Below are positions 51,733 to 63,115 of a stretch of 64,000 bases of DNA, piece after piece. Positions within the stretch are counted from its first letter, which is position 1, and each line of letters begins with the position of its first letter. Location: positions 224,001 through 288,000 of the forward strand of contig JBLWTJ010000001.1 of NCBI GenBank assembly GCA_048270185.1, given 5' to 3'. This DNA is from Bacteriovoracaceae bacterium (GTDB lineage: Bacteria; Bdellovibrionota; Bacteriovoracia; Bacteriovoracales; Bacteriovoracaceae). Both the position numbers and the translations under genes were made by a program. The notes under the pieces were generated by a model. That model did not search any database. It was not told where the DNA came from and was given only the letters and a program-made list of their open reading frames with translations.

Positions 51733-54099
51733 TTATTTGACTTTAAATCCAGCAAGGGCCGCAAAAGCGTTGTTCTTTAAAGGTGCATCGTTTTGCTTTG
51801 GCATTTTTGGTTGACCGCCACGTGGTTTACTCTGGCGAGGGCCTCCTGTTGGACGCTCATAAGTTTTTGCTTCTTCTGCACCATCTGATTTAAGTGAAAG
51901 TGCAATACGCTTGCGGTCCATATCAACATCAAGAACTACTGCTGATACTTCTTGACCAACCTTTAAAACATCTAGCGCATTATCGACAAAGTGATCGGCC
52001 ATCTGACTGACGTGGACTAGACCATTTTCTTTGATACCAATATCAACAAAGGCTCCAAATTGAGTGATATTTTTTACAATACCTGGATAGCGCTCACCAA
52101 TCTTTACATCTTTTATTTCGCGAACATCTTTTCTAAACTCAGTTGTCTTAAATTCTGTACGTGGATCCTGAGATGGAGCAGTTAGTGATTTATAAATATC
52201 GTTAAGTGTGAACTCACCTAATTTTTCAATAAGTTCTTTGTCTGATTTAAGTTGATTTGCAACAGCATTATCTGTTGTTAGCTGCTCAAGAGTGTAACCC
52301 TTTGATTGTGCCCAGTTCTCTAGCATTTCGTAACTTTCTGGGTGGATAAATGTTGCATCTAGTGGATTGGTCCCATTATAGACTCTTAAGAAGCCCGCTG
52401 CTTGTTGGAAGATTTTATCTGTGAAGCGTGAAACCTTCAAAATATCTGCACGTTGCTTAAAGAGTCCGTTCTTATCTCTGTGTTTAACAATATTTCCTGC
52501 TACTGTTGGCCCAATACCTGAAATGAATGAAAGAAGTGGCGCTGAGGCAGTGTTTAAGTCTACACCTACAAAGTTAACACAACTTTCGACCACTCCATCA
52601 AGAGACTTCTTAAGTCTTACTTGATTTACATCGTGCTGGTATTGACCAACACCTATTGACTTAGGATCAATCTTTACTAGTTCTGCAAGTGGGTCTTGGA
52701 AACGACGGCCAATAGAGATTGCTCCTCTTACTGTTGCGTCTTTATCTGGGAATTCTTTCTTCGCAATTGGTGATGCCGAATAGATTGAAGCACCATCTTC
52801 TGAAATCATTGTTGCTTTAACTTTTCCATCTCTTACTGCAGTAATATTGTCTTCAACAAATTGAAGTGTCTCACGTCCGAAAGTACCGTTACCAATAGCA
52901 ATATACTCGACATTGAATTGTTCAATCATGGCATTAAGAATCGTTGCCGACTCGCGAACTTGATTTCTTGGTGGGTGAGGATAGACAACAGTATCAACGA
53001 CAAATTTACCTGTGTTGTCGACAACCACTGTCTTACAACCCGTCACAACACCTGGGTCAAGAGCAAGGACTGTCTTAGGGCCTAGATAAGGCTGAAGTAA
53101 TAAGTTTTTAAGGTTAACTCCAAAGACATCAATAGCTGATTCATCTGAAAGCTTCTTTAATTCTCCTTTGATCTCAAGATCAAGAGAAGAGTGAATATAA
53201 TTCTTATAAGCCTTTGAGGCACAGTCAACAAGGGCCTTGTAGCTTGTCACAGAAGTGTCTGAGAAGTGCTTAGAAAGAATCATATTATTTGCATAATCTT
53301 CATCAAAGACAATTTCAACTTTTAAGATTTTTTCTGTCTGAGCACGTCGGATTGCTAAGAATCTGTGAGCTGCTTTTGGGTCTCTGAGATCAGATACTTT
53401 TTGTTCATATTCAAAGTAGTCTTTGTATTTTTGCCAGTCTTTGATTTCTTCGTATCCTTTTCGCGGTGAAGATTTAATTTGAGCTTGTGCCCAGTAATCT
53501 TTACGAAGATTTTCTTTCAGTTCTGTATCATGAGCGATCTCTTCAATAATAATATCGCAGGCACCTTTTAAGACATCTTCAAACGTTGCTATCTTCTTGT
53601 CTTTGTTTATGAATTTAAGGGCCTCTTTTGCAAGCTCTGGCATTGGAAGCTTTGATTCCTTCATAAGGATTGCAAATGGTTCAAGCCCTGCTTCTTTTGC
53701 AATTTGGGCCTTCGTCTTTCTCTTTGACTTAAATGGCGCATAGATATCTTCTAGTTGGTTGATATTAGTTGCGGCCTTGATTTTCTTTTCAATTTCAGGA
53801 GTCATCATCTCTTGTTTCGTGATGGCCTCTAAAATAAAAGCACGACGTTTTTCACGCTCAATATATTCATCATATTTTTCTTGAATTAAACGAATTTGCT
53901 CTTCGTCCAATCCACCAGTTTTATCTTTACGGTAACGAGTGATGAAAGGAACAGTACAGTCTTCAACGAGAAGCATGGCAAGTACTGCCATAATTTGTTT
54001 TGCTGTGATGTCTGTGTTGTCTACACAGAATAGGACTGCGTTTTGATCAATGATATCCATTGGGTTCTTTGTGGCTTTTTCAGTCGTCTCTGATGACAT
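51733..54099 (-). CDS. tex: Tex family RNA-binding transcriptional accessory protein
   Basis: TVPFITRYRK, LDPG..TGCK, GASIYSAS, SIGVGQYQHD, C-terminal S1 domain. Confidence 0.96.
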   Translation of the reverse strand: MSSETTEKATKNPMDIIDQNAVLFCVDNTDITAKQIMAVLAMLLVEDCTVPFITRYRKDKTGGLDEEQIRLIQEKYDEYIEREKRRAFILEAITKQEMMTPEIEKKIKAATNINQLEDIYAPFKSKRKTKAQIAKEAGLEPFAILMKESKLPMPELAKEALKFINKDKKIATFEDVLKGACDIIIEEIAHDTELKENLRKDYWAQAQIKSSPRKGYEEIKDWQKYKDYFEYEQKVSDLRDPKAAHRFLAIRRAQTEKILKVEIVFDEDYANNMILSKHFSDTSVTSYKALVDCASKAYKNYIHSSLDLEIKGELKKLSDESAIDVFGVNLKNLLLQPYLGPKTVLALDPGVVTGCKTVVVDNTGKFVVDTVVYPHPPRNQVRESATILNAMIEQFNVEYIAIGNGTFGRETLQFVEDNITAVRDGKVKATMISEDGASIYSASPIAKKEFPDKDATVRGAISIGRRFQDPLAELVKIDPKSIGVGQYQHDVNQVRLKKSLDGVVESCVNFVGVDLNTASAPLLSFISGIGPTVAGNIVKHRDKNGLFKQRADILKVSRFTDKIFQQAAGFLRVYNGTNPLDATFIHPESYEMLENWAQSKGYTLEQLTTDNAVANQLKSDKELIEKLGEFTLNDIYKSLTAPSQDPRTEFKTTEFRKDVREIKDVKIGERYPGIVKNITQFGAFVDIGIKENGLVHVSQMADHFVDNALDVLKVGQEVSAVVLDVDMDRKRIALSLKSDGAEEAKTYERPTGGPRQSKPRGGQPKMPKQNDAPLKNNAFAALAGFKVK

Positions 54100-54219: not shown

Positions 54220-55188
54220 ATGAAAAGAAATTACGACTATATGATCGTTGGAGATGGAATAGCTGCTCGCAGCATTTGTTATTTTCTAACAAAGAAATAC
54301 CCAAAGGCCGCAATAGGTCAGATTGCAGATGATATTTCATATCCATCTTGCTCTCTTAAGACAACAAGTGTTGTTTCTCTGGGCCTCTTCGAGGAAGGCA
54401 TCTCAAAGCTTGGAGATATTCTCTTTAACGCTCATATCTTCTTTAATGACTTTGTTAAAAAAAATAATCCAAACGGTATCTATCCAGCTAAGCAGTACTA
54501 TCTGCCTCCTAATATCAAAGAAGATCCGCTAAAATTTAAGCAATTTGAGGCCAGGTATGGCAGTCATTTTGTTGATTTTAAAGGCAATCAATGTGTGGCC
54601 AAAGATGCTTTTCTTATCAACCCTTCTGATTTCATGGATTGGCTTAAATCCCATTACAGTAATGAGATTGAGTTTATGAATGGGAGAGTTTCAAATGTAT
54701 CTTGTGGGCTTTTACAAACAAGCTTAGGAGAGTTAAGAGCTAATAAGATCATCTTAGCAACCTCGGCCTACACTAGTTTATTTTTTAAAGATAAATCACT
54801 TCCAGAAGGCAAACCAGTTAAAGGTACATATTATTTTTGGGATAATATTGATTTTGATGAAGATTTCGTTCTAAGTCATGGCCACTATAATCTCATTTAC
54901 CGAAGAAATGATAAAAGACTTCTCTTTGGTGCTAACTCAATTGAGGGACTTAATCACTTGCATACAACAAATGAAGTGGAAGAGGAGTTTGAATTCTTTA
55001 AAACTTTAATTCCACAGCTTAAAAGTTTTGGTGTACCAAGTGTTGAGACTGGTATACGCCACAAAGGTAAGAGACGAACGCCATTTATGGGTGAGGTAAG
55101 TGAAGGCATTTATGCTCTAAACGCACTTTATAAGAACGGATGGAGCGCTGGGATTAGCTTAGCAAAAGATCTAGTGGAGTTGTTGTAA
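54220..55188 (+). CDS. FAD-dependent oxidoreductase (DAO family)
   Basis: IVGDGIAA, PVKG, TGIR, C-terminal ALYKNG. Confidence 0.8.
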   Translation: MKRNYDYMIVGDGIAARSICYFLTKKYPKAAIGQIADDISYPSCSLKTTSVVSLGLFEEGISKLGDILFNAHIFFNDFVKKNNPNGIYPAKQYYLPPNIKEDPLKFKQFEARYGSHFVDFKGNQCVAKDAFLINPSDFMDWLKSHYSNEIEFMNGRVSNVSCGLLQTSLGELRANKIILATSAYTSLFFKDKSLPEGKPVKGTYYFWDNIDFDEDFVLSHGHYNLIYRRNDKRLLFGANSIEGLNHLHTTNEVEEEFEFFKTLIPQLKSFGVPSVETGIRHKGKRRTPFMGEVSEGIYALNALYKNGWSAGISLAKDLVELL

Positions 55189-55923
55189 TTCTGGCTTTGC
55201 AGCTTTAATTTCTTCAAGAACAAAATCCCATAGCTTTGATCTTAGGGCAAGTGACTCAAGGGCCACATCGAGGGCCTCTTTGCTCTTTTGGTCATCGCTA
55301 CATAGTTGTTCCAGAAGCTTTCCTGCGAGATCTCCGTGTTCATCACCATCTAATTCGATATGTCTTTTAAGGTAATGCTTAAAGTATGGAGCATCGATTT
55401 GTTTTTCATCTAAGACTTTTACAAATGGTGTGAATAAATCAGGAATTAGATTTTCTCTTCCATAGAAGAAGGCTGAGGCCACTTGCCAAGGGCCAGTATT
55501 AGTGACTAGATTTAGATTAAAGGCCGTAAATGTTGAAACCTCATGTGGAAGGTTTTCAAATGAAAGATCCTTTAGAAAATTCTCCATAGGGCCAGTATCG
55601 GCACCTACTTCTTTCATTGCATTAAGATACATTGTGAAATGATCGATATGACCACCGTTGATATCTTCATCACTTTCTTCACCTAAGACAATCTCATTGA
55701 TAAATCGTACAGCGTTCTTGTCGTATTTTGAAGGCATCCAAGGAGTTGTCACACACGTTACTTCCCTTTGTAGTCCTTTTAGAAGAGACATGAAATCCCA
55801 AACGGCAAAGACATGCCATTTCATAAGAATTTTTACATCTTCAATATCGTTGATATTTGAATAAAGAGGGTGATTACATAGCTCATTATGAGCAGCTTGA
55901 ATTTGTGATGTTAGCGCCTTCAT
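55171..55923 (-). CDS. DUF3050 heme-oxygenase-like protein
   Basis: HPLY, HVFAVWDFMSLLK, NEIVLGEESD, YLKRHIELDGDEHG. Confidence 0.9.
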   Translation of the reverse strand: MKALTSQIQAAHNELCNHPLYSNINDIEDVKILMKWHVFAVWDFMSLLKGLQREVTCVTTPWMPSKYDKNAVRFINEIVLGEESDEDINGGHIDHFTMYLNAMKEVGADTGPMENFLKDLSFENLPHEVSTFTAFNLNLVTNTGPWQVASAFFYGRENLIPDLFTPFVKVLDEKQIDAPYFKHYLKRHIELDGDEHGDLAGKLLEQLCSDDQKSKEALDVALESLALRSKLWDFVLEEIKAAKPELQQLH

Positions 55924-55975: not shown

Positions 55976-57598
55976 TTATTTATGGAATAAATGGTGGAAA
56001 TCAGGTTTATATAGCTTTCTGCGCCGCCCGTTTCGATTTCTTCGGCCACCGCTATTAAGCTTTTGGTTATAGCGTCTATCTTCAATATATTTTGTATATA
56101 TTTTCGCATCACTCTCGCGATAATCTTCTAGGAGAGTGAACATTTCATTGAATGATAGAATTTTTTCATTTTCCTTCTCAGCTGCTGCTATTTTATCATA
56201 GAGCTTTTCTCCAACTTGATCGAGTACCACAAAGAGATCGATTTGTTTTGAGCCAAGATTCAATGGAAACTTATGTTCGAGATCGATTCCTGAAATGACT
56301 TCGACTATCGATCGCGTGACACTTGTTCTTCTGGCAAGCCAAGCAAAGTCATTTCCTAATTTTGTTCCAAGGCTTGGGTCAAACTCATATTTTTCTTTTT
56401 CCATCCATTCAAAAATCTTTGAAAGAATAGCGTCTTTATATCGAGTGTCTTTCAGTTTTGTTGGATTTCTCCATTCGGCCACTAGATCAAAGCGTGAATC
56501 GAACTGAATTTCTCCTGGTCCAAATGTTTTAAAAGTTGAGATATTCTTCTTAGTAACTTTTAGGCCAAAGTCTTGTAAGAATGAAAGTAGGGCAGGATTA
56601 AAGCTCGTCTTATATTCTGGAATATTCATCTGTCTGCCATTAATCTTTTTAGATGCTTCGTTGTAGCCATGATAGATTACTTCTGAACAAAAGATTTCAC
56701 TGTCATCTTGATAGTCCATTGCAAAGTCATATGGAATATTCTTCTTTTTCTTTGTCGTATGATTTTTAAATCTCTCATACATTTCTTTACCTGCAGCATG
56801 TGCTAGTTTTTCGTCTTTTAAACGAAAGACAACTGTACGGGCATTTTTTTGGTCAAGGTGAACTTGAAAAGGAGCTGCCACATTTCCAATTTCAATATGG
56901 GCCTCTGATGTAAAAAGCTCTCCCGTTTTCTCATTTTTGTAAACAAGTGTAAGGTGTGAAAATTGATGATCATCATCGCCAATTCTTGCGATGGCCGCAC
57001 TTGAGTAAGCATTGCCTCTTGAGAGAATGATGTCGCCTGACTTTAAGTCCTTTACACCATTAAAGTCATATTTTGGATTAACCATAAAGTGGATAGGGGT
57101 TGGCCCGTCAAAGTTTAGGGTCGTAAAATCTTTAGGTCTTGAATCTAAGCTTTGTGATTCATAGTAAGATTCAATAAAGTAATCCTCAAGGTAGCGAAGA
57201 GATCTAAAAATATCCTTAACGCCTTTTAAGCATTGTGCTTCAACGACAGATAATTCTTTCTCTGAACTATTTAAGCCTTTTAGCTGTTCTTTTAGATCAA
57301 GTCTTATATTGAAAGAAGCATTAACAAAATCTTGCATTTGATATTTAGAAAATTCAGCAAAATCAATATCATCTGATTTTATGGCAAAGAGTTCACGGTA
57401 GTATTTTTGAGTCTTTGAAACACATTCTTGGGGGGATTTTACTCCTTTAGAAACTTGCTCGTGCATTTCATGCATGAGGGCCTCAAAACCCGATTCCCTA
57501 AGAGAGCTTGGCATACGATATCGTTGTTCACTTTGACAGCTGGCCAATTGAGTTAATAATAGGAGTCCAGAAGTCCACGTAAGTACTTGTTTTTTCAT
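55976..57598 (-). CDS. Lipoprotein with permuted papain-like (YiiX/YebB, NlpC/P60) amidase domain
   Basis: Lipobox LASC; GDIILSRG, FSH, YDF, IFCSEVI with His before Cys. Confidence 0.88.
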   Translation of the reverse strand: MKKQVLTWTSGLLLLTQLASCQSEQRYRMPSSLRESGFEALMHEMHEQVSKGVKSPQECVSKTQKYYRELFAIKSDDIDFAEFSKYQMQDFVNASFNIRLDLKEQLKGLNSSEKELSVVEAQCLKGVKDIFRSLRYLEDYFIESYYESQSLDSRPKDFTTLNFDGPTPIHFMVNPKYDFNGVKDLKSGDIILSRGNAYSSAAIARIGDDDHQFSHLTLVYKNEKTGELFTSEAHIEIGNVAAPFQVHLDQKNARTVVFRLKDEKLAHAAGKEMYERFKNHTTKKKKNIPYDFAMDYQDDSEIFCSEVIYHGYNEASKKINGRQMNIPEYKTSFNPALLSFLQDFGLKVTKKNISTFKTFGPGEIQFDSRFDLVAEWRNPTKLKDTRYKDAILSKIFEWMEKEKYEFDPSLGTKLGNDFAWLARRTSVTRSIVEVISGIDLEHKFPLNLGSKQIDLFVVLDQVGEKLYDKIAAAEKENEKILSFNEMFTLLEDYRESDAKIYTKYIEDRRYNQKLNSGGRRNRNGRRRKLYKPDFHHLFHK

Positions 57599-57706: not shown

Positions 57707-58234
57707 ATGACAAATAAGAGTGAAGAAGTACATTTTAGAATTTTAAATGCAGTGACTAAACTTGAAGTGGCCAAGGGGCATCTTAATTGGAAGATTGCTG
57801 AGGTTGCAAAAGAAGCCGACGTTACAAGATCGCTAATTTATTATTACTTAGGTAAAGAAAAAGACGTGATTTTAAAAGAGGCCGTAAAGTTTATGATTGC
57901 ACGAGTCTTTAACCTTTCGCAAGAGAGATCAGTTGGAATCAGAGAGCGAATAAAAATAGTTCGTAATCAAATTATCCAAATGCCTTATCTCTTGGCCCTC
58001 TATATGATTAATAAGGGTGCTGGAAATGAGATTTCAGATATTATTGTTGAAGCGGAGCAAGAGCTCTTTACACTTCTTGCAAAGAAATATCCTACTCTTG
58101 ATCCAAGAGAGCACCTAAGAATCTATTTGATGCAATTAGGGGTTTGTTTATACCGTGATATCGATGATGAAAGTCTCGACTATCTTTTTACTAAATATGA
58201 TGAAGACAATGTAATGCATAAAAAAAGCCTCTAA
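57707..58234 (+). CDS. TetR/AcrR family transcriptional regulator
   Basis: IAEVAKEADVTRSLIYYY HTH. Confidence 0.88.
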   Translation: MTNKSEEVHFRILNAVTKLEVAKGHLNWKIAEVAKEADVTRSLIYYYLGKEKDVILKEAVKFMIARVFNLSQERSVGIRERIKIVRNQIIQMPYLLALYMINKGAGNEISDIIVEAEQELFTLLAKKYPTLDPREHLRIYLMQLGVCLYRDIDDESLDYLFTKYDEDNVMHKKSL

Positions 58235-58254: not shown

Positions 58255-61113
58255 TTAACAAAAGTCTACTGATGCGTGATTATACTCATCTGGTGGTAGT
58301 TCACAATCATCTTCAGAGAAGTTATGATCTCCACCGTTATTAATTGGATCAAATTTTTCAATCGTTCCAGGAATCGCCTGGTCATCAATTAAATCGTGGT
58401 TACTATCAAATGCTTCTTTATATGTTTTGTATGCTTCTAGCATATATACATCTGGTGATTGAGTTTTTCTCTCTTTCAGATTAAACATTGAACTTGAAGC
58501 CTTTGCTAGGAAGTCAGTGAACTTATAAAGTGTCTTTCTTCCTCTAAACATCATCGTATACTGGTTTTCAGTCATTCCAAGACGATCTCTTAGGATTGAG
58601 TTGAATTGGAATCCTTCTCCAGTGAAGTACCAAGTTTCTTCAAGTCTTTCTTTACCTTCTTTTGGCTTACAGATCTTGAAACGAACTGGATTATTTTCTG
58701 CAACATAAACAGTTACTGTCTGTGGCCCACCGTATGGGTTATATGTTGGTCTCTTTTCTTTTCTCCACTTTGAAGTTCCTTCAATCATGAAACATTGTTG
58801 AGTGATTGCTTCAAAGTTTAGAGTAATGGCCTCGGCATATAAGTCAATTGATTGACCTGAATCACTTCTGTTGTTTTCTCCATTTGAACGGTCTAGTGAC
58901 CATGTCGTAGACCAGTCGTAAGAAGCCGATACGCCAACTCCGCCACCAACTGGTGAAGCTTCACCAAATGGGATTTTAAAGTCTAGCTTTGCTCCAACTC
59001 CTGTTTTGTAACCATGAGAGAATCCAACTCTTCTATTCTCTGTAAAGTAAGTCCCAGTACCTGTCGACTTATTGATTCTAATTGTATTCGAATGGGCAAC
59101 TTTTGGAGCACTCGTAATATCGATGATATGACTTACTGGAGTGATCATCATGAAATCCCATGGGCGCTCAGTACACTTTTCCATATTGTAATCAGTGTAA
59201 GTTGTTCCAATTTTATACCATGGTGCTTTTTCTTCACTAAAGAAAGCAGCACATAGTTTTGCAAGTGTCGCTGCACCGTAATTATCTTCATATATTCCAG
59301 CAAATTCTTTTGCAGTTAGTTTGTTCTCATCACTTAATCTAAAGTTAAGTGCTTTGTCATCGTAGTTAATTGTTTCATCAAATGACTCGTGCTTGCTAAG
59401 TTCTTGCTCAAAAAGTTGCTTTGAATTCTTCTTGTAGCGTGGAGCAAGTTTTGCATCGATGATATCTTTCTTAGAAACTCCTTTAATATCTGCTGACATT
59501 TTCTCAAGGTAGTTTTCTAGCTGAACCATCTCAGTCATTTTTTCGTTAATCTTTGAATTCGTGTAATCAGTTTCATCAAAGTGATCTGTTACCTTCAGTT
59601 GTGTGTGAAGAACAGAACGGAATGATTTAGATGAAGCATGGAATGTACCAGCTGCCCATGCAGGTAGTGGTGCAGTTCTTGGATCATCTCCTTCTCTAAT
59701 GATTGGTGAAAGCTTAATGGCCGCATAAGTTCTTGTGTGAACATATGGAATGTCAACAAACTTAATAGGCATATCAATTCTTGCTTTAAGTAGGTTATTT
59801 TCAACTTCAACTTCACGAGAAGCGACTGAGATTAGCTTAAACTTGTGCTTATTCTCATTTGTTAAATCAATATCACCTTCAAGTGGAGCTAGGAAGTAAA
59901 CTTCAAGTTTTAGTTTACCTTGATAGAAAGGCTCTACTGGGTTTGTAGTATGTACATAGTTACCATAGTTAACTTTTGGATACATTTTGATAATGAATGA
60001 TTTCTCAATAACTAGATCAAGATTCTTGTTGATGTGAAAACCTTTTCTATTATCGTGACCTAGGAAGTTATAATCAACTTCGTCAACAAATAGACGAGCT
60101 CTTTGCTTGTTGTTATCTTCTTCACATTGACCTGTTCTTGAAACTTCAGCGAAGATCCAACCGTTATTTGACCATGGGTAGAGACAAAGTCCTCTTGTTA
60201 CCTTTGCATTCTTTAGTGTTTCATTTTGTACTTCAATTTCAAGGTTAAATGGAATACGACGAGTATTCGTATATCTTTCGTGTTCAAGATAGAATTTAAT
60301 TTCTGCACAACCTGATTCATCAAGTTGACCGTCTGTTGAGTCATACATTTCAGTTACGGCGTGCTCTTCTCCATTTCTTTGTTTTTCAAGGTTAATAAGT
60401 CTTGCTTTAACGAATTCATTTGATAGTGAACGTCCATCTGCCTTAAGGTTTAGACAACCATTAACAACAACTTTCTGGTCAATTACTAAATTATCATTTC
60501 TTGGATCAACAAGACCGAAACCTTTTGGTGTGATTTTTACATTTTTAACGTTAATCATTTCTTCACTTGAAAGCTTCTGAGCATTCAGTGAATTCTTTAG
60601 GTGGTAGTTATTTCCGTGGATAATGCTGTTTGCATATTGGTTAACAGCAAGCTTTAGGTCGTAGCTAATGCTTGGATTTGTTGCTAGTGACACTTTTCTT
60701 TCAAATGGTAGATATGTATTTGGAAGTGAGTAATCCATTGGCATTTGCTCATCCCAGAATATACAGCTATTTGCGTCAGCTCTTTTTTCTACAGTTTCAA
60801 AATTTGCACCTGTAACAAAGAAGCTATTATATTGTAGGCTTTTTCCAATTTTAGAATTTAGACATGCTTTAACATGGAAAGTCTTCTGATAAGCAATACG
60901 TGATTTCATTGTTGGCTTATCTTCACTAACACCTTCAACACTGAAACGTGAAACGCTGATAAGACCGTTTTCATTAGCAGAAGCCTTAAGCTGTCTTGCT
61001 AACATTTGCTTCTCATCATTAGATGTATCACTTCCACAACCAACAAGTGCTGTTAGTGTCAGTAGAATGATACTTAGACGTGATAGGTTTTTAGTGTTCT
61101 TACAAAATGTCAT
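58255..61113 (-). CDS. Large lipoprotein with aerolysin/ETX-like beta-hairpin near the C-terminus
   Basis: Lipobox LVGC; beta-sandwich-like N-terminal regions; FSHGYKTGVGAKLDFKIPF..GVGVSASYDWSTT. Confidence 0.65.
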   Translation of the reverse strand: MTFCKNTKNLSRLSIILLTLTALVGCGSDTSNDEKQMLARQLKASANENGLISVSRFSVEGVSEDKPTMKSRIAYQKTFHVKACLNSKIGKSLQYNSFFVTGANFETVEKRADANSCIFWDEQMPMDYSLPNTYLPFERKVSLATNPSISYDLKLAVNQYANSIIHGNNYHLKNSLNAQKLSSEEMINVKNVKITPKGFGLVDPRNDNLVIDQKVVVNGCLNLKADGRSLSNEFVKARLINLEKQRNGEEHAVTEMYDSTDGQLDESGCAEIKFYLEHERYTNTRRIPFNLEIEVQNETLKNAKVTRGLCLYPWSNNGWIFAEVSRTGQCEEDNNKQRARLFVDEVDYNFLGHDNRKGFHINKNLDLVIEKSFIIKMYPKVNYGNYVHTTNPVEPFYQGKLKLEVYFLAPLEGDIDLTNENKHKFKLISVASREVEVENNLLKARIDMPIKFVDIPYVHTRTYAAIKLSPIIREGDDPRTAPLPAWAAGTFHASSKSFRSVLHTQLKVTDHFDETDYTNSKINEKMTEMVQLENYLEKMSADIKGVSKKDIIDAKLAPRYKKNSKQLFEQELSKHESFDETINYDDKALNFRLSDENKLTAKEFAGIYEDNYGAATLAKLCAAFFSEEKAPWYKIGTTYTDYNMEKCTERPWDFMMITPVSHIIDITSAPKVAHSNTIRINKSTGTGTYFTENRRVGFSHGYKTGVGAKLDFKIPFGEASPVGGGVGVSASYDWSTTWSLDRSNGENNRSDSGQSIDLYAEAITLNFEAITQQCFMIEGTSKWRKEKRPTYNPYGGPQTVTVYVAENNPVRFKICKPKEGKERLEETWYFTGEGFQFNSILRDRLGMTENQYTMMFRGRKTLYKFTDFLAKASSSMFNLKERKTQSPDVYMLEAYKTYKEAFDSNHDLIDDQAIPGTIEKFDPINNGGDHNFSEDDCELPPDEYNHASVDFC

Positions 61114-62284
61114 ATTCTTTCCTTAATGAGATGCTGTAAACTTGCTCATCGCTGTAACCATTGATTAGGTAAACTGAGTCTTCGTTTCCTATAACTGTGC
61201 GATTTGTATATTTAATATCTGCTGAAAATCCACCAAGGCCTGTCATCGCTAGACTTGCTTGGTAACCTTCGTAGTCATTTGATAAAGCATTAGCGCGATA
61301 GAATGCTGGTGCTGTATCCGCTTCGTTTCTAAAAGCAAGTGCTTCAAGAGAGATCTTTGATCCAGCAATTTTTGTTTCATAATTTGCACCATAAAGGTAT
61401 CCAGTATTCTTTCCTGTTGGTGCATCTTGGTTATTTACATATGAACCAAATACTTTCATCTTATCTTCACCGACTCTAAAGAGCACTCCAGCATTGGCGT
61501 ACATTCCTGTGTAGTCATAGTAGTAAAGACTTTGATCTGCTGCTGCACCTTTACTTACTGAGTTCCCCCAGTAGTAGTCGTTATCTGCTACATCGGCCGA
61601 AAGCTTAAAGTAACGATAGCTTCCAACTGCTGAGTATAATTTCATTCCACTTGTTAGGTATGTTAGATCGATACTTTCATTAAAGAAGCTTGGGCTTCCT
61701 GAATCATCGACATTAAAAGTTTCTTTTAAAATTCTGTTTTCTGGCCTTGCTTGTGTTGCTTGTAATCTTACATAAAGATTTCCAAATTTTTGGATAGCAA
61801 CTTCTCTAGCTCCAATAAATGAGTTTCCACCATTAATAAACGGTGAAATAAATTGTTGTGAGCTTGAATTATTTAAGGCACCAAAATTGATTTTTGCGAA
61901 ATTTAAAATCTTGTAGTTAAAGTAACCGTAATTATAAGTGAATTTTGGCTTAAACTCGGCCGCTCTTCCTTGCTCTTGTGTTGAAGAGTTACCTGACTGA
62001 TATTTGAATCCACCATCAAAGTCAAAGTCGAGTCCACTAGCAATGTTGGCCTCAAGATCGATATTGATATTAGTCTCAAAGCGAGAGAACTTATCAGTAT
62101 CAGAAGACATTGAGCTATACGAAGAGTCGATATTTAGATCGAGGTTCTTAATTCCAGCTTCTTTAAGGCCTTGGCGTACCACAGATGTCTGTGATGTAGA
62201 CGCTTTGCTTTGCCCAAGAACTGGAGTGGCCAGTAGTAAGCTCAGTAAAATTAAATGTTTAGTCGTTACTTTTTCGTTTTGCAT
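61100..62284 (-). CDS. Outer-membrane beta-barrel (porin-like) protein
   Basis: Start MQNEK at 62284 after AGGAAAG; signal peptide; many amphipathic aromatic strands; overlaps the next gene by 14 bp. Confidence 0.75.
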   Translation of the reverse strand: MQNEKVTTKHLILLSLLLATPVLGQSKASTSQTSVVRQGLKEAGIKNLDLNIDSSYSSMSSDTDKFSRFETNINIDLEANIASGLDFDFDGGFKYQSGNSSTQEQGRAAEFKPKFTYNYGYFNYKILNFAKINFGALNNSSSQQFISPFINGGNSFIGAREVAIQKFGNLYVRLQATQARPENRILKETFNVDDSGSPSFFNESIDLTYLTSGMKLYSAVGSYRYFKLSADVADNDYYWGNSVSKGAAADQSLYYYDYTGMYANAGVLFRVGEDKMKVFGSYVNNQDAPTGKNTGYLYGANYETKIAGSKISLEALAFRNEADTAPAFYRANALSNDYEGYQASLAMTGLGGFSADIKYTNRTVIGNEDSVYLINGYSDEQVYSISLRKEYDIL

Positions 62285-62316
62285 ATCTTTCCTATTTGGT
62301 ACGATGTTATTAGAGA

Positions 62317-62332
62317 TGCAGGAATGATGCCA
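62317..62332 (-). promoter_or_regulatory. Candidate sigma54 (-24/-12) promoter
   Basis: Minus strand TGGCATC-ATTC-CTGCA, GG-N10-GC, 32 nt upstream of the 62284 start. Confidence 0.65.
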
Positions 62333-62421
62333 GTTGTCATGGACAATGTTCACGGTGTCTAAATTTTAACCTACCGAAATAACGTTCATCATTGAATATT
62401 ATTGATGTTTAGAGAATACTC

Positions 62422-62442
62422 AGTGTTCATAATGTGAACACT
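62422..62442. promoter_or_regulatory. Perfect inverted repeat, candidate enhancer or operator
   Basis: AGTGTTCA-TAATG-TGAACACT. Confidence 0.55.
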
Positions 62443-62455
62443 AAATAAAAAAGGA

Positions 62456-63022
62456 ATGAATAAAATGTCGACATTAGAAAGTCTAAAGAAGCGAAATTCG
62501 CAGTGTGAATTATGTGAAGGAACTCAGAATCTTGAAGCATATCAAGTTGAGGCCGCAAGTGGACTTGATCTTGAAGGAAATATTCTTATCTGTAGTGATT
62601 GTAAGAGTGCAATGGAAGATATTCAATCTTCAGCGAATCACTGGCGCTGCTTAAATGGTGCTATATGGAGTGAATATGCGGCCGTTAAGGTAGCAGCATA
62701 TCGAATCCTATGGGAAATCAAAGACTTAGGTTGGCCATCTGAATTATTAGACCAGATTTATCTAGAAGATAGTGAGCTAGCTATTGCTAAATCAACAATT
62801 AACGAAAGTGGAGTTGTCTGTCGTGATTCAAACGGAACTGAACTTATGGCCGGTGATAGTGTGACAATTATCAAGGACCTTAATGTTAAAGGTGGTGGAT
62901 TTACGGCCAAGCGTGGAACAACAGTTAAGAATATCGTTCTTACAGATGATCCTAAGTTAATTGAAGGACGTGTAAACGGAACAAAAATTGTTCTTGTTAG
63001 TGCTTATTTAAAGAAGTTGTAA
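62456..63022 (+). CDS. PhnA/YjdM-domain zinc-ribbon protein
   Basis: CELC, CSDC, HWRCL, RDSNG..GDSVTIIKDLNVKG. Confidence 0.9.
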   Translation: MNKMSTLESLKKRNSQCELCEGTQNLEAYQVEAASGLDLEGNILICSDCKSAMEDIQSSANHWRCLNGAIWSEYAAVKVAAYRILWEIKDLGWPSELLDQIYLEDSELAIAKSTINESGVVCRDSNGTELMAGDSVTIIKDLNVKGGGFTAKRGTTVKNIVLTDDPKLIEGRVNGTKIVLVSAYLKKL

Positions 63023-63038: not shown

Positions 63039-63115
63039 TGGTGCGAAAGGGCAGATTTGAACTGCCGACCTACGGGATATGAATCCGTCGCTCTAACCAA
63101 CTGAGCTACATTCGC
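63039..63115 (-). tRNA. tRNA-Met (CAT), probably elongator
   Basis: 77-nt cloverleaf GCGAATG-TA-GCTC..GAGC-G-ACGGA-TTCATAT-CCCGT-AGGTC-GGCAG-TTCAAAT-CTGCC-CTTTCGC-A-CCA; G1-C72 paired so not initiator. Confidence 0.93.

Follow-up and report, generated by a model that had tools for sequence, protein, structure and literature searches.

The window analyzed here comprises 64,000 nucleotides (nt) of a Bacteriovoracaceae bacterium of the phylum Bdellovibrionota (GenBank assembly GCA_048270185.1, contig JBLWTJ010000001.1, positions 224,001 to 288,000 of the forward strand). On its minus strand lies a pair of genes, predicted to encode an outer-membrane β-barrel and a large lipoprotein (Table 1), which we consider as a candidate pore-forming system; the nearest named relatives are Halobacteriovorax (80% identical). 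As stated in the initial annotation of this DNA, the porin-like gene overlaps the lipoprotein gene: the two open reading frames (ORFs) share 14 bp (61100-61113), through which translation of the second gene is predicted to be coupled to that of the first. The barrel gene most likely starts at the ATG at 62284, since the alternative GTG at 62353 is located upstream of the promoter motif. Each gene is present in a single copy in the source genome as judged by tblastn and, for the lipoprotein, also by the family profile.

Table 1. Features of the barrel-lipoprotein locus (window positions; residue numbers refer to the lipoprotein).
Feature	Position	Strand	Remarks
Sigma54-type -24/-12 promoter motif (predicted)	62317..62332	-	Kept in close orthologues; rpoN in genome
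Inverted repeat, TGT-N11-ACA core	62422..62442	.	~125 nt before the predicted transcription start
Predicted outer-membrane β-barrel gene, 394 aa	61100..62284	-	Likely orthologue of Bd2381 by synteny
Predicted lipoprotein gene, 952 aa	58255..61113	-	Synteny and family profile point to Bd2382 (Q6MKK6) as the likely orthologue
Signal peptide and lipobox, Cys26, no Asp at +2	61036..61113	-	Cys in 125/126 aligned rows
Domain D1, residues ~48-165, Ig-like (CnaB-like) repeat, conserved Cys84/Cys117	60619..60972	-	Profile match
Domain D2, residues ~185-320, second copy of the D1 repeat, Cys220/Cys269	60154..60561	-	hhalign
Domain D3, residues ~338-500, conserved	59614..60102	-	No fold match
Domain D5, residues 612-872, stem-bearing; conserved Cys621, 647, 774, 815 and RG motif	58498..59280	-	
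Predicted pore stem, Ile680-Leu758: Ser/Thr strand, amphipathic hairpin, Ser/Thr strand	58840..59076	-	
Predicted membrane-spanning hairpin, Tyr702-Trp734, turn near Phe716-Gly717	58912..59010	-	Alternation and covariation
C-terminal hydrophobic-Pro-Gly motif, residues 914-916	58366..58374	-	Nearly invariant in full-length alignments

Domain D5 of the lipoprotein bears the predicted stem. The peptide that the initial annotation had singled out as a hairpin between Ser/Thr-rich strands corresponds to residues 698-737 (window 59022-58903) and indeed has Ser/Thr/Gly-rich flanks; hydrophobic residues alternate over the Gly-rich segment 702-734, with aromatic residues at the ends of the hairpin tip. 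Across the family the stem-equivalent stretch has a median length of 77 residues and contains 34% Ser/Thr/Gly, compared with 17% in the rest of the domain, an enrichment observed in all 71 of 71 aligned rows, and both its anatomy and its length are kept among members at 11-39% identity. Three of the top four covarying pairs in an alignment of 200 rows (699-735, 701-733, and 687-749) fall in an antiparallel register centred near residue 717 and support a predicted hairpin of more than 60 residues (lower pairs were dominated by invariant residues and were not used).

This hairpin, present family-wide, resembles the stems of β-pore-formers by three kinds of search. Among the 26 PDB sequences matched by the D5 profile at E<=10, 24 are β-pore-formers representing about eight distinct proteins; the best match is lysenin (E 0.018), and the stems of binary toxins match over ~80 positions with E 0.24-0.5, while no β-pore-formers were retrieved from PDB by the profiles of D1, D3, and the barrel that served as controls. 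In the AlphaFold2 model of D5 (mean predicted local distance difference test score 82) the hairpin runs in long extended strands rather than being buried in a core. The best Foldseek match of this model is the epsilon-toxin pore (E 7.9e-5); the matches listed at E<=0.001 are aerolysin-type or anthrax protective antigen (PA) pores as well as one Bt crystal protein that is titled non-toxic, and binary toxins match at E 0.001-0.005. The stem overlays that of the lysenin pore at 2.3 Å over 51 residues, and ESM features listed aerolysin, monalysin, and ETX/MTX2 clusters at 0.91-0.92. We consider it quite probable that the stem forms a membrane pore.

With the aerolysin family (lysenin, epsilon toxin/ETX-MTX2, monalysin, Cry51/Mpp, and aerolysin itself) the lipoprotein thus shares an alternating amphipathic hairpin between Ser/Thr-rich strands on a long stem of similar length. 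The aerolysin/ETX-like hairpin proposed in the initial annotation therefore stands as regards the stem, but not as regards the profile of that family: ETX_MTX2 (PF03318) was found in 0 of the 251 genomes of the phylum, and it is not among the matches listed for 30, 39, or 71 family members scanned. In the overlays made, similarity to aerolysin and PA was seen over the stem, and a match of the whole fold did not emerge. The translocons of binary toxins (iota Ib, CDTb, anthrax PA, and Vip1/Vip4) likewise have a long Ser/Thr-rich stem, matched with weak E-values, and a similar overall size; they differ in that only their stems are matched, in that the N-terminal domains here are CnaB-like repeats, and in that no conserved enzymatic partner gene accompanies the pair in the 68 loci described below. 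By analogy, the protein may work like the pores of both groups, and we file it under neither.

The remaining domains bear on a plainer interpretation, namely that the lipoprotein is an ordinary surface adhesin or nutrient-binding protein accompanied by a porin, and that its likeness to toxins arises from Ser/Thr/Gly composition. D1 and D2 are homologous Cys-paired immunoglobulin (Ig)-like repeats (hhalign probability 99.4) of adhesin-like type, the D1 profile matching a collagen adhesion protein with E 0.014; moreover, no global fold match was obtained, and none of the sequence matches, which are confined to the biased stretch, reaches E 0.01. Against it stand an ordered stem retained at such low identity, the covariation across it, and the extended strands of the model, and we regard this interpretation as very improbable. 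The D3 profile had no PDB match at E<=10, and a variable linker separates D3 from D5. The N-terminal stalk varies in length among members, full-length ORFs ranging from 696 to 1803 amino acids (aa). A loose form of the C-terminal hydrophobic-Pro-Gly pattern is found within the last 45 residues of 48 of the 74 family ORFs; weak covariation (854-912 and 855-918) connects D5 with the C-terminal region, and the motif may pack back on D5. Among 62 lipoboxes found across the family, two have Asp at +2.

Judged from sequence alone, the barrel protein has about 16 alternating strands, which follow from residue 47 on, shortly behind its signal peptide. No Pfam, NCBIfam, or PDB family matched it (Pfam over 62 members), and it is predicted to represent an undescribed family of outer-membrane barrels. 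Its gene is strictly coupled to that of the lipoprotein. The lipoprotein family comprises 139 representatives at 50% identity (phmmer, E<=0.001), one of the 30 representatives looked up carrying the taxon name Oligoflexia, and a 30-row profile detected it in 94 of the 251 genomes of the phylum and in 31 of the 57 genomes of the family to which the window belongs; in single-query searches of 24 family genomes, the 15 with a barrel were also the 15 with a lipoprotein. We surveyed 68 loci with 74 family ORFs, one of them a fragment (three loci were chosen around barrel matches, which introduces a small bias). The barrel gene was observed within 200 nt upstream of 53 ORFs, in 36 cases with an overlap of exactly 14 bp, so that conservation of the gene pair across Bdellovibrionota, proposed earlier as a check, is borne out. 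For ten further ORFs the barrel is near: seven have it at a distance of 2.3-7 kb, two are second copies in tandem, and one is the fragment. For another ten there is none within the flank, and one lies at a contig edge. In the genus g86, which is Bdellovibrio-like, each genome has one match in a syntenic position. Any third gene family is limited to at most 16 of the 68 loci, and the commonest ones look like housekeeping genes; the conserved unit therefore consists of barrel and lipoprotein only, and no conserved immunity-type, cargo, or enzymatic partner gene lies beside it.

Barrel-plus-lipoprotein pairs are also formed by the Slam/type XI systems, in which an N-terminal TPR domain precedes a 14-strand barrel. 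In both cases the gene for the barrel immediately precedes that for the lipoprotein, and the two are inherited together; the differences are the predicted strand number and the fact that no TPR-type N-domain is evident in the sequence of our barrel. Surface CDC-like/MACPF lipoproteins of Bacteroidota and CsgG are, in turn, lipid-anchored precursors of oligomeric β-barrel pores. We treat all these as analogies, not as relatives.

Several variations of gene context were observed. In a second class of paralogues, a gene of the penicillin-amidase family (PF01804) is located between barrel and lipoprotein, often with an acyltransferase gene nearby (L045:5297-15191, L046:4157-15155, and L047:5134-11158; also L096, L098, L106, and L109); the amidase family is present in 7 of the 68 loci and could be a candidate deacylase releasing the lipoprotein. 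The 2.8-Mb genome G040 has three barrel loci (L048, L049, and L050) and five lipoprotein genes, with tandem copies at two loci and a further family match near L048. Apparent lipopolysaccharide-core genes adjoin the pair in Bdellovibrio-like families and in several others (L053-L055, L064-L066, L093, L094, and others), waaA-like and heptosyltransferase-like genes occurring at 15 and 11 of the 68 loci, respectively.

The likely orthologues of the pair in B. bacteriovorus HD100 are Bd2381 and Bd2382, as suggested by synteny, length, and mass rather than by sequence alignment. At one surveyed locus (L053) the gene order is chloride channel, two small genes, barrel (377 aa), lipoprotein (1098 aa), proteins of 203 and 367 aa, and a metal-binding protein. 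The lipoprotein of this locus (122.17 kDa) and Q6MKK6, the product of Bd2382 (122.14 kDa), are both 1098 aa long. The HD100 gene table gives the same order with mostly identical lengths, and there Bd2381 (1134 nt) and Bd2382 (3297 nt) likewise share 14 bp (PMC3627812). Both genes are weakly expressed in the attack phase and 3-h growth phase (1.3/2.7 and 19.4/9.5 reads per kilobase per million, compared with a threshold of 50 used in that paper; PMC3627812). Both also belong to the 240-gene predatosome set, up-regulated at 30 min of predation and not in prey-free growth, although the induction is modest (1.36-1.60 fold, p 0.019 and 0.032; PMC2797640). In a study of prey killed without invasion, one Bd2382 peptide was recorded with score 0, which is very weak evidence, and Bd2381 was not listed (PMC11003981). 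The HD100 pair stands beside a gliding operon that ends at Bd2377.

Upstream of the barrel gene of the window, the -24/-12 promoter recognized in the initial annotation (TGGCATCATTCCTGCA) ends 32 nt before the ATG and predicts a transcription start site near 62306. Taken alone, the motif is weak and near chance, with at least one match in 27 of 100 shuffles; nevertheless, five of five close orthologues retain it, and they retain the TGT-N11-ACA core of the upstream inverted repeat as well. The GG-N10-GC motif, the presence of rpoN in the source genome, and a putative activator site upstream are consistent with sigma54 control. The inverted repeat, previously described as a perfect palindrome, is perfect only over 8-bp arms around a 5-nt spacer and extends to 13-nt arms at 85%; it is likely the binding site of a sigma54 activator. 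A second, weaker palindrome proposed at 62381-62400 did not hold up, since it is not conserved in the five close orthologues and lies partly within an insertion that they lack. Three same-genus orthologues (L033-L035) have no clear -24/-12 motif in their upstream regions and keep a short ATGACA-containing element that in the others sits just upstream of the motif. The source genome contains 27 matches to the strict sigma54 pattern, compared with ~17 expected from the shuffle rate of the window, and many of them sit just upstream of apparent genes.

The interpretation that we favor is that the barrel delivers a lipid-tethered pore-former which oligomerizes in prey membranes and serves as a dispensable helper early in predation. 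Pore formation by the stem has a good probability and prey membranes, given a pore, a little better than an even one, and the combined proposal consequently falls slightly short of an even chance. The lipoprotein would be sorted to the outer membrane by Lol and exposed on the surface through or on the barrel, then released or transferred by proteolysis, vesicles, or direct contact. After ring assembly, and in the manner of lysenin, aerolysin, or binary-toxin pores, the stem would unfurl in the inner or outer membrane of the prey into a barrel ~9-10 nm long, and could thereby aid depolarization, leakage, or hydrolase entry. Two results limit this proposal. First, in transposon sequencing (Tn-seq) of strain 109J the syntenic interval showed no predation defect: all seven genes located between the ExbB-type gene and the Fe-siderophore gene had fitness values of 1.05-2.08 in four conditions (PMC6561027). 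The pair is expected inside this interval, probably as EP01_RS08020/08025 by counting genes; given the values for all genes of the interval, it is probably not needed for laboratory predation, with the reservation that pooled screens at a multiplicity of infection of 1 may miss timing effects. Second, the -24/-12 motif was found near only two of 26 distant barrel genes, so sigma54 control appears to be a local feature of close relatives and not of the family.

The main competing explanation retains the lipoprotein in the outer membrane of the predator, where it would oligomerize and, together with the barrel, provide a conduit for export of hydrolases or for uptake of prey material after entry. 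CsgG and secretin-like lipoproteins form channels in this way in their own outer membrane. The fixed anchor favors such a role, the lipid-bearing Cys being retained in all but one of the aligned rows, as do the strict coupling to an outer-membrane barrel, the lack of a conserved immunity-type or cargo gene nearby, the FlgH L-ring chains lower in the Foldseek list (E 0.013), and an induction at 30 min that fits the switch to feeding. On the other hand, the stem, with its 77 residues and its long hydrophilic Ser/Thr strands, far exceeds what is needed for crossing the own membrane and resembles toxins that reach across a gap; moreover, a permanent large pore of this kind would require gating, and no such part was identified. 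We judge a channel in the predator's own membrane rather unlikely.

Prey delivery also has to be weighed against a pore-former directed at grazing protists, competing predators, or particular natural prey and thus irrelevant to laboratory predation on E. coli or Vibrio. The toxins that provide the best structural matches act mostly on eukaryotic membranes, and the missing Tn-seq defect, the patchy distribution with up to five paralogues in G040, and the variable N-terminal stalk are in agreement with such targets. Induction specific to predation on E. coli and the single syntenic match per genome in g86, which suggests a stable role in the life cycle, are not, and we consider this possibility unlikely. 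Alternatively, the hairpins may zip into a collar or stalk without forming a membrane pore. Phage collar, upper-tail, and L-ring chains come after the toxins in the Foldseek list (E 0.013-0.03), the Ig-like stalk would fit a surface appendage, and tomography has detected an envelope-spanning complex of unassigned identity with extracellular rings, termed rose-like, in addition to a portal collar (bioRxiv 10.1101/2022.06.13.496000). A structural ring of this type is distinctly unlikely, given the membrane-type alternation and terminal aromatic residues of the hairpin tip; further, the rose-like complexes belong to the attack phase, when Bd2381/Bd2382 transcripts are low, and an essential portal part ought to show a Tn-seq defect.

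The pair can also be compared with PopA (Bd0427) of the Bdellovibrio outer membrane, whose movement into the inner membrane of the prey has been reported (PMC12228718). PopA resembles the proteins of the pair in belonging to the predator envelope and in its proposed action on prey membranes; unlike them, it is an abundant pentameric porin-like protein that passes little solute (PMC12228718), and the pair is weakly expressed and has a toxin-type stem. The barrel profile matched no PDB sequence.

A wider formulation, which we regard as possible but doubtful, is that the two genes constitute a membrane-breaching device of predatory Bdellovibrionota: the barrel would be a dedicated exporter or base, and the lipoprotein a lipid-tethered pore-former with a long stem and a scaffold unlike that of aerolysin or PA, which would open the prey membrane or build a predator-to-prey conduit in the first 30 min of attack. 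How Bdellovibrio-type predators breach and depolarize prey membranes is a standing question; according to a 2026 review, a chemical definition of invasion has been elusive (PMC13689555), and prey are killed by secreted proteins even without invasion (PMC11003981). Full-text searches, judged from their listings, returned no description of a pore-forming toxin-like protein in Bdellovibrio or Halobacteriovorax, nor of Bd2381/Bd2382 in main text, though subscription papers and bioRxiv supplements could hold one; for the terms searched, the accessible parts of the review (PMC13689555) and the PopA paper (PMC12228718) do not mention such a toxin. In a strain amenable to genetics, the pair provides two genes with assigned names, together with a defined hairpin and time window. 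If the proposal is true, bd2381-bd2382 would be a concrete candidate for the unexplained early depolarization and killing of prey, and the 139 representatives would add a family of bacteria-targeting long-stem pores, possibly with a new lipoprotein export barrel.

Finally, some genes around the pair deserve mention. A YjdM/PhnA zinc-ribbon gene (62456-63022, plus strand) lies between tRNA-Met (63039-63115, minus strand) and the promoter of the pair; it looks like a recent insertion, since in close relatives a tRNA end apparently lies directly upstream of the promoter region. On the other side, positions 55976-57598 (minus strand) encode a 540-aa lipoprotein-like permuted papain amidase (Peptidase_C92/YiiX), and a similar gene is located near the second paralogue class (L045:3715-5193, and probably L046:2043-3593). 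Ordinary neighbors are a DUF3050 iron-redox-like gene (55171-55923, minus strand), a TetR-like regulator (57707-58234, plus strand), and a gene for a 788-aa protein (51733-54099, minus strand), which we take to be Tex-like and RNA-binding.

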